Part shown: positions 3,851 to 4,306 of the stretch, in pieces
How the letters are laid out: each line of letters opens with the position of its first letter
Numbering within the stretch: the stretch's first letter is position 1
DNA from: a virus
Taxonomy: Duplodnaviria; Heunggongvirae; Uroviricota; Caudoviricetes
Virus record (IMG/VR): IMGVR_UViG_2671180963_000007
Location: 1 to 11,135 of that record
Length of the DNA: 11,135 bases
Direction: 5' to 3' (one strand)
The notes under the pieces: model-generated
Told to the model about the DNA's origin: nothing
The model's input: only the letters and a program-made list of their open reading frames with translations
Databases searched by the model: none
Made by a program: the position numbers and the translations under genes

Positions 3851-3878
3851 AGATAAAATAAACCCGCCGAAGCGGGTT
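3851..3878 (-). terminator. Intrinsic terminator at the 3' end of the hok/mok mRNA
   Basis: On the minus strand: AACCCGC-ttcg-GCGGGTT followed by TATTTTATCT, about 70 nt downstream of the hok stop. Confidence 0.5.
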
Positions 3879-3946
3879 AAGCGCGGGTGCGTTGAGGATG
3901 CCTGACACATCAGAGGCGGCGAGGGATTTCTCCCTCGCCAAGTCTC

Positions 3947-4102
3947 TTACTCCTCAGGTTCGTAGACTGTGAAGACAGCGACCTCCGTCTGGCCGGTTCG
4001 GATTCGTACCTCGCAGAGGTCTTTCCTCGTTACCAGTGTCGTCACTATGACGGTTAAAAAGATGACGATCAGGGCGATTAACATCGCCTTTTGCTGCTTC
4101 AT
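3947..4102 (-). CDS. hokD: Hok/Gef-family type I toxin (51 aa membrane peptide), HokD/RelF-like
   Basis: MKQQKAMLIALIVIFLTVIVTTLVTRKDLCEVRIRTGQTEVAVFTVYEPEE: near-identical by recall to E. coli HokD and HokC (TM helix then ...RKDLCEV.IRTGQTEVAVFT.YE). Strong AAGGAG lies 7 nt upstream of the ATG at 4100..4102. Confidence 0.85.
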   Translation of the reverse strand: MKQQKAMLIALIVIFLTVIVTTLVTRKDLCEVRIRTGQTEVAVFTVYEPEE

Positions 4103-4159
4103 AGCCTGCTTCTCCTTGCCTTTCGGCACGTAAGAGGCTAACCTAGATTTGCCGTTCAT
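3947..4159 (-). CDS. mok: Mok-like reading frame: in-frame upstream extension of hok (70 aa)
   Basis: ATG at 4157..4159 opens MNGKSRLASYVPKGKEKQA and runs in frame into hok, as MokC does for HokC by recall. Weaker GAGG Shine-Dalgarno upstream. Confidence 0.45.
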   Translation of the reverse strand: MNGKSRLASYVPKGKEKQAMKQQKAMLIALIVIFLTVIVTTLVTRKDLCEVRIRTGQTEVAVFTVYEPEE

Positions 4160-4220
4160 AGATTGAGCCTCAGATTAATGTTAAGCGTCTTGCAGGACGC
4201 GTAATGTTAACCGGGGCTTT
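4150..4220 (+). ncRNA. sok: Candidate Sok-like antisense RNA overlapping the mok translation-initiation region (approximate bounds)
   Basis: Plus-strand promoter-like elements TTGCCT (4116..4121), 17-bp spacer, TAACCT (4139..4144) would start transcription near 4151, antisense to the mok Shine-Dalgarno and ATG. The 3' end is not cleanly defined (a GC stem at 4185..4200, then GGGGCTTTTCTCT). Placement is by analogy with hok/sok. Confidence 0.25.
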
Positions 4221-4277
4221 TCTCTATCTGCCGTTGGTGTTCATGCCTGAGACAGATAGCCTCAAGCACCCGCAGCC

Positions 4278-4306
4278 ATTCTACTTAACTCCCGTCACCT
4301 CGCCAA
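4278..4306 (-). promoter_or_regulatory. Candidate sigma70 promoter for the hok/mok mRNA
   Basis: Minus strand: TTGGCG (plus 4301..4306), 17-bp spacer, TAGAAT (plus 4278..4283). A start near 4271 gives a transcript of about 400 nt down to the terminator at 3851..3878, the expected hok mRNA size. Confidence 0.3.

Follow-up and report, generated by a model that had tools for sequence, protein, structure and literature searches.

The window analysed here is the whole 11,135-nucleotide (nt) stretch of the viral record IMGVR_UViG_2671180963_000007 (Caudoviricetes). Positions 4306..3851 of its minus strand very probably (a probability of roughly 0.9) constitute a complete hok/mok/sok type I toxin-antitoxin (TA) cassette of the hokD/hokW type, carried as accessory cargo of a gene-depleted Qin/Sp5-like lambdoid prophage of E. 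coli. Both the kind of element and the hokD subgroup are already known. The cassette consists of a 51-amino-acid (aa) toxin gene, an overlapping mok leader frame with its own Shine-Dalgarno (SD) sequence, the regulatory elements of a long mRNA and, on the opposite strand, a predicted antisense RNA:

4278..4306, minus strand: promoter of the hok/mok mRNA, TTGGCG-17-TAGAAT, from the promoter scan; its -10 is the same as the hokW -10.
3855..4271, minus strand: full-length mok-hok mRNA of ~417 nt; 5' end placed from where the Rfam model begins and from conserved GGGUGCUUGAGG, 3' end by the terminator.
4260..4271, minus strand: tac element GGGUGCUUGAGG at the mRNA 5' end; its partner is fbi in the full-length fold, ucb in the truncated one.
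4214..4218, minus strand: ucb (anti-SD), GCCCC; pairs with the mok SD in the full-length minimum free energy (MFE) structure and with tac in the truncated one.
4167..4171, minus strand: mok SD, GAGGC, read from the sequence; sequestered by ucb in the full-length fold and paired with dcb in the truncated fold.
3947..4159, minus strand: 70-aa mok leader frame sharing the hok reading frame; ATG at 4159.
4139..4134, minus strand: dcb, AGCCUC; pairs with the mok SD in the truncated fold.
3947..4102, minus strand: hok, HokD allele F15/T22/V46, 51 aa; matches Pfam PF01848, and public contigs with the exact sequence name it HokD.
3885..3897, minus strand: fbi element CCUCAACGCACCC; pairs with tac in the MFE structure, is conserved across genera and is identical in hokW.
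3853..3878, minus strand: intrinsic terminator of the hok mRNA, found by terminator scan; the stem has 7 bp, 5 of them GC, followed by TATTTTAT.
4116..4144, plus strand: Sok promoter, TTGCCT (4116..4121)-17-TAACCT (4139..4144), read from the sequence; identical to the sokW promoter.
4151..4221, plus strand: predicted Sok antisense RNA of ~71 nt, starting 7 nt past the -10; a hairpin, then GGGGCUUUU.

The toxin frame belongs to the Hok family, as the Pfam model HOK_GEF (PF01848) matches the 70-aa frame with E=4.8e-20 over the whole model (all 42 positions); the E-values from Pfam and Rfam led to the rejection of a chance open reading frame (ORF). The peptide, MKQQKAMLIALIVIFLTVIVTTLVTRKDLCEVRIRTGQTEVAVFTVYEPEE, is preceded by the SD sequence AAGGAG at 4117..4112 (-), 9 nt 5' of the ATG, and retains six of the seven conserved Hok residues (M1, T17, L29, C30, E31, and E40 in HokD numbering), the seventh position being occupied by Phe15. 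The mok ATG at 4159 has GAGG 8 nt upstream as its own SD. In-frame mok frames of 69-70 aa are also present in hokC-type loci, in other hokD-type loci and in an R1-type plasmid; the notion that mok lies obligatorily out of frame with hok was rejected, since close relatives show both arrangements. Their coexistence is consistent with the view that mok translation, rather than the Mok product, is what counts (PMC9841398). The first-pass annotation had read from the sequence a 51-aa Hok/Gef peptide with AAGGAG, an in-frame Mok-like frame, a minus-strand promoter-like TTGGCG-17-TAGAAT with a downstream terminator, and a plus-strand TTGCCT-17-TAACCT. All of these are borne out: both minus-strand signals are found by scan (terminator hairpin at 3878..3861 (-), T-run to ~3853), delimiting the ~417-nt mRNA, and the plus-strand promoter is base-for-base that of sokW in the prophage Sp5.

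In-silico folding of the window sequence reproduces both published conformations of the archetypal mRNA, i.e., the closed full-length and the open 3'-truncated form summarised for R1 hok (PMC9841398). The full-length mRNA (4271..3855) has an MFE of -165.6 kcal/mol (z=-6.45) and is closed by a 12-bp tac/fbi helix with one bulge, the very pairing that the first-pass annotation had proposed to look for. Folding of 4271..3898, from which the last ~43 nt are removed, yields instead a stem between tac and ucb together with a hairpin of the mok SD and dcb, leaving the hok SD unpaired. These structures were examined on an alignment of 18 full-length loci from Escherichia, Shigella, Kluyvera, Erwinia, and one unclassified Enterobacteriaceae isolate. 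When the window fold is imposed on it, 89% of the cells are paired, versus ~40% with the partners slid, and 31 pairs show compensatory changes with both sides changed. The tac/fbi helix is 93.5% paired across these loci, the hok promoter -10 reads TANNNT in 18/18, and the mok SD GAGGC is invariant.

The Rfam family RF01794 (named 'sok') matches at 4271..4097 (-) with 105 bits against a gathering score of 59 (E=1.4e-23). The match, 175 nt long, is in hok-sense orientation and stops at the hok AUG. RF01794 describes the leader of the hok mRNA (the tac/ucb hairpin, the Sok-target hairpin and the mok start) and not the ~71-nt antisense RNA. Because of its strand, the match is not counted as evidence of Sok transcription, and strand calls resting on RF01794 would mislead.

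For the antitoxin, the relevant evidence comes from comparison and folding. The block TAGCCTCTTAC is invariant in the 18 loci. The candidate RNA, a long hairpin followed by a U-run, folds with z=-4.1, its predicted 5' tail GCCGUUCAUAGAUU complements the mok start region, and its predicted length of ~71 nt equals that of sokW, 71 nt (PMC8621323).

On these grounds a mechanism can be proposed from homology and in-silico folding. The minus strand would yield a stable ~417-nt mRNA in which tac/fbi pairing and the masking of the mok SD by ucb prevent translation. Slow trimming of the 3' end would remove fbi and allow tac to pair with ucb, shifting the mok SD into the SD/dcb hairpin; translation of mok would then drive the coupled translation of the 51-aa membrane toxin. 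The constitutive and unstable ~71-nt Sok, made from the plus strand, is expected to pair across the mok start and to block mok translation, the duplex being cleaved by ribonuclease III (RNase III) in relatives. If the supply of Sok stops, Hok would be made and the inner membrane damaged. Such a stop might follow from loss of the locus, from a transcription shut-off or from prophage induction, the latter having been shown for hokW.

Several observations weigh against this reading of a complete cassette. A sigma-70 consensus scan of the window left the Sok promoter unreported; the scan missed it because its -10, TAACCT, matches the consensus at 3/6 positions, and the promoter call rests on identity to the validated sokW promoter, not on the consensus scan. 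We infer transcription of both RNAs from homology. NCBIfam Hok models give the peptide only sub-threshold scores (42 bits vs a cut-off of 73). The tac/fbi helix shows no compensatory change in the 18 loci, being too conserved to vary; covariation thus neither supports nor refutes it, and covariation support is limited to the other helices. The remaining points concern the toxin. Relative to the nearest alleles it carries C15F (TGT to TTT at 4059), A22T (4039) and A46V, and all differences in the coding sequence (CDS) are non-synonymous. Cys15 is retained by 120/120 of the closest cluster representatives. Its equivalent C16 in R1 numbering is one of the seven residues (M1, C16, T18, L30, C31, E32, and E41) that are more than 80% conserved in 1,264 Hok peptides (bioRxiv 10.1101/2025.08.07.668861), and the equivalent change C14S in HokB lowers membrane abundance and abolishes toxicity (PMC12214031). 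PADLOC returned no Hok model hit.

The toxin substitutions could mean that an intact RNA shell encloses an attenuated or dead toxin: C15F together with A22T would lower membrane insertion or stability, and the cassette would be a decaying neutral relic that no longer kills. The conservation of Cys15, the behavior of HokB C14S and the purely non-synonymous divergence all fit this explanation, as does the rarity of the allele. A 44-nt probe spanning F15 has DEC9B as its sole match in the 5,426 complete genomes, and there the locus is already split; T22 is found separately in E2348/69. Against it stands the finding that R1 Hok C16A is still toxic when overexpressed, so that the cysteine belongs to a conservation pattern and is no strict requirement; moreover, 42/45 diverse natural Hoks are toxic (bioRxiv 10.1101/2025.08.07.668861). 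Hoks of Erwinia naturally carry Ala or Val at this position, and phenylalanine, being hydrophobic, should suit a transmembrane helix. The main text of the FASTBAC-Seq suppressor paper does not mention substitutions of C16. The F15 allele also persists, the exact 51-aa peptide being encoded on 89 public contigs under the name HokD, and the RNA elements are all unmutated; the C15F and A22T positions are unpaired in the predicted mRNA fold. A sequencing error was rejected as the source of F15 on account of those 89 contigs and of a 6,029-bp block that is 100% identical in independent assemblies. Overall, the relic explanation seems unlikely, and the F15 peptide is probably still toxic. The natural Cys15-to-Phe allele could serve as a test of the conserved transmembrane Hok cysteine at native expression levels.

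We therefore return to the reading of a complete cassette, with the qualification that the term 'intact', used in the first-pass annotation, applies to its RNA part. The RNA elements are complete and uninterrupted, unlike those in K-12, E2348/69, and DEC9B, whereas the toxin carries C15F. Alignment against functional hok loci, which had been named beforehand as a refuting test, finds no element disrupted relative to hokW-sokW, at 93% identity.

A further feature lies within the toxin gene:

3961..3964, minus strand: UACG at the Tyr47 codon, a candidate TadA adenosine-to-inosine (A-to-I) recoding site (Tyr to Cys); the motif is from the sequence, the editing from the literature.

Editing of hokD at the Tyr47 codon has been reported (PMC12214031; bioRxiv 10.1101/2025.08.07.668861), the level of TadA recoding to Cys in K-12 hokD being low (PMC12214031). 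The A46V allele (GCU to GUC) alters the bases 5' of the UACG motif, within 3961..3967 (-), from CUUACGAA to UCUACGAA.

The surroundings of the cassette are those of a lambdoid prophage. In intact relatives, hokD occupies a fixed position between the DUF977/replication region and orf92-ydfU-rusA-Q, and the location upstream of orf92-ydfU(DUF968)-rusA-Q is shared with EC21Z-014, 19AR0254, DEC9B, K-12, and draft genomes. Measured against strain 19AR0254, whose prophage is intact, the window shows two deletions. At junction 9155/9156, ~6 kb of immunity/replication genes are removed, and an N-terminally truncated DUF977 gene joins the 3' end of an exoribonuclease gene. At junction 3128, ydfU (DUF968) breaks off after ~27 codons, where the sequence continues into a tail-fibre gene (1753..3072) and NleB (325..1305). 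Immunity/replication, nin/Q, lysis, and head genes are thereby missing from the window. Its exact ydfU/tail-fibre junction is absent from the 5,426 complete genomes. Between the two breakpoints, the block 3128..9156 (6,029 bp) is 100% identical inside fuller lambdoid prophages of other isolates. In sister assemblies that carry the identical block, the deletions have different end-points; one of these assemblies shares the 3128 breakpoint but joins it to window position 1276. As the block is identical in fuller prophages and the deletion end-points vary, it is native cargo that has survived, rather than an insertion in place of the prophage core. The window is thus a doubly deleted lambdoid prophage remnant retaining, besides the TA cassette, a defence gene:

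4751..8383, minus strand: Tmn (YobI-family transmembrane NTPase), 1,210 aa; Pfam PF20693 YobI-ATPase 8e-123, PADLOC Tmn 2.9e-66.

Tmn is a characterised, self-contained anti-phage NTPase without a conserved operon partner (PMC13001434). The PADLOC match is limited to the N-terminal residues 9-439 (~440 aa), and the C-terminal part shows the variability known from the family; the length of the window protein is near that of the ~1,270-aa enterobacterial Tmn clades (PMC13001434). By eye, its translation contains two hydrophobic stretches, around residues 133-155 and 176-198; they are candidates for the pair of transmembrane helices that Tmn proteins have within the P-loop domain. An exact copy of the protein is encoded on 76 public contigs. 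The slot directly upstream of the hokD leader contains, depending on the strain, Tmn, SMODS+SLATT, an AAA ATPase with an HNH endonuclease, or relBE, and judging from these sequences it behaves like a variable cargo hotspot beside a constant hokD in Qin-type lambdoid prophages.

The first-pass annotation had joined the cassette and the neighbouring NTPase into a small defence/addiction islet replacing the prophage core. The NTPase does turn out to be a known defence protein, but the pair is native cargo left between two deletions, and a functional coupling of hokD and Tmn is unsupported. Such a cooperative anti-phage islet would work as follows: once infection has halted transcription in the host, Sok decays and Hok depolarises the membrane, while Tmn drives plasmolysis in parallel. 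The bona fide defence function of the neighbour, the defence-like cargo found in the same slot in relatives, and the original report of T4 exclusion by R1 hok/sok (as cited in PMC13047441) would speak for it. However, with a terminator (4729..4707 (-)) belonging to Tmn and a promoter belonging to hok, the two form separate transcription units, and Tmn lacks a conserved operon partner. Hok loci near defence systems amount to 12% observed vs 9.4% expected, i.e., they are not enriched (bioRxiv 10.1101/2025.08.07.668861). The reduction of T4 propagation by hok/sok, to which the first-pass annotation had also appealed, was not reproduced in 2026 in either MG1655 or BLR (PMC13047441). Since hokD stays constant while the upstream cargo varies, the link with Tmn is positional and not specific, and a joint anti-phage function appears highly improbable.

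A different role is suggested by hokW-sokW in Sp5. There, SOS induction depletes Sok and allows Hok to be made, the early membrane damage speeding phage release; deletion of hokW-sokW halves the release of Sp5 (PMC8621323). The 93% identity and identical promoters of the two cassettes, as well as the occurrence of the same allele in fuller prophages with holin and lysozyme genes, are compatible with such a job. The window itself, however, is devoid of immunity/replication, nin/Q, lysis, and head genes and cannot release phage; a role in release could therefore be ancestral only. As the actual function of this cassette, it is doubtful.

With lysis and morphogenesis genes gone, the only role plausibly left in the remnant is selfish retention of the DNA neighbourhood. 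A sharper version would make the hokD cassette a 'deletion guard', in which cells losing hokD are killed and F15 represents a tuned, weaker toxin that makes long-term carriage tolerable. Nested and independent deletions do strip the prophage from both sides, each stopping short of the 6-kb Tmn-hokD block (the window and loci L045, L047, and L048). Even so, we consider this version a long shot.

A separate observation concerns a 30-aa strongly hydrophobic ORF at 4314..4406 (-), MVLVLKCALAIAAVMAIYCLAVVLMDRLSD, which has an AGGAGG Shine-Dalgarno sequence and ends 8 nt before the hok -35. Its exact sequence is present on 192 public contigs and annotated once, as hypothetical, while 34-aa variants are labelled 'membrane protein'. 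In the genomes inspected it is not called by the Prokaryotic Genome Annotation Pipeline (PGAP), and its divergence is too small for a coding test.

The locus is widespread. At least 1,384 of the 5,426 complete Escherichia coli genomes hold >=80% of window positions 3700..4500, and the homologous gene goes under the name hokD in PGAP annotations of E. coli genomes. The whole locus is found in 74 sequenced lambdoid or Shiga toxin (Stx)-converting phages under the names HokD, MokW, or host killer, and a catalogue of Hok lists 32,532 loci in RefSeq, enriched in prophages (bioRxiv 10.1101/2025.08.07.668861). Near-identical E. coli-type hokD sequences also occur in records of Acinetobacter idrijaensis, Xanthomonas pisi, a Candidatus Scatousia metagenome-assembled genome and an Actinobacillus phage. 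These are very short contigs or entries filed under unrelated taxa, most likely contaminated or mis-binned with E. coli prophage DNA. With annotation as hokD in thousands of genomes and an experimentally characterised relative, hokW-sokW, at 93% identity, the cassette has little discovery value as such.

This relative, from the Stx2 prophage Sp5 of E. coli O157:H7 and 933W-type phages, was compared through the Stx2a phage copy matching the primers of PMC8621323. The 93% nucleotide identity is that of the stretch running from the -10 through fbi, with no base differing in the hok -10, tac, ucb, mok SD, hok SD, fbi, or anywhere in the Sok promoter; the probe sequence YO-597, as well as the site that YO-421 mutates, in its wild-type form, falls within the match (PMC8621323). 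A 51-aa toxin, a Sok of ~71 nt and location in a lambdoid prophage are common to both. For hokW-sokW, type I TA function has been shown experimentally, with both RNAs detected on Northern blots; sokW is complementary to the leader over 71 nt, a -10 mutation abolishes its antitoxin activity, and the activity requires RNase III and Hfq (PMC8621323). The two cassettes differ in the toxin (F15 vs C, T22 vs A, and a C-terminus of ...FTVYEPEE vs ...FVDYESEK), in the N-terminal codons of mok and the 5' tail of Sok, and in the sequence after fbi, which hence provides a different terminator. The window prophage is a non-inducible remnant, unlike the prophage hosting hokW-sokW.

More distant systems share the same plan. 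E. coli hokC/mokC/sokC (gef) has the same architecture with an in-frame Mok, ~74% nucleotide identity, and the same tac and fbi sequences, but belongs to the core chromosome instead of prophage cargo and lacks the 18-nt hairpin extension of the Sok/target stem; in the hokC copy of strain ECDA1023, homology is lost before fbi. The archetypal system, hok/mok/sok (parB) from plasmid R1, shares the tac core, the mok SD, TAGCCTCTTAC, the hok SD GCAAGGAGAAG, and the layout of the Sok promoter, whose -10 is TATCCT vs TAACCT in the window. R1 Hok is 43% identical to the window peptide, and the R1 system is plasmid-borne with proven post-segregational killing.

The counterpart in K-12, hokD (relF) of the cryptic prophage Qin, is the same gene in the same position upstream of ydfU. 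K-12 HokD is identical to the window peptide at 48/51 residues, and its 3' untranslated region, fbi, and terminator are the same. Homology of the K-12 locus to the window starts only at AGGAGAAGCAGGCTATG (the hok SD); upstream of it, relBE stands in place of the promoter, tac, ucb, mok start, and sok, whereas the window keeps the full leader. Since the K-12 leader has been replaced by relBE, the window represents the undisrupted form of hokD. Other strains show different interruptions. At 5846..7426 of locus L005 from E2348/69, leader and CDS lie on either side of an IS481-family element. At 4694..8529 of locus L004 from DEC9B, a leader (promoter, tac, mok start, and sok) that matches the window at 100% identity sits 3.3 kb upstream of the hok CDS, and the gap is filled by a partial ISEsa1 and a ydfW-flxA-ydfV-relBE block, with the 16 nt AGGAGAAGCAGGCTAT at both ends; this arrangement may be an intermediate toward the relBE-hokD structure of K-12. 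The window can serve as a clean reference for the undisrupted ancestor from which the K-12 relBE-hokD arrangement arose.

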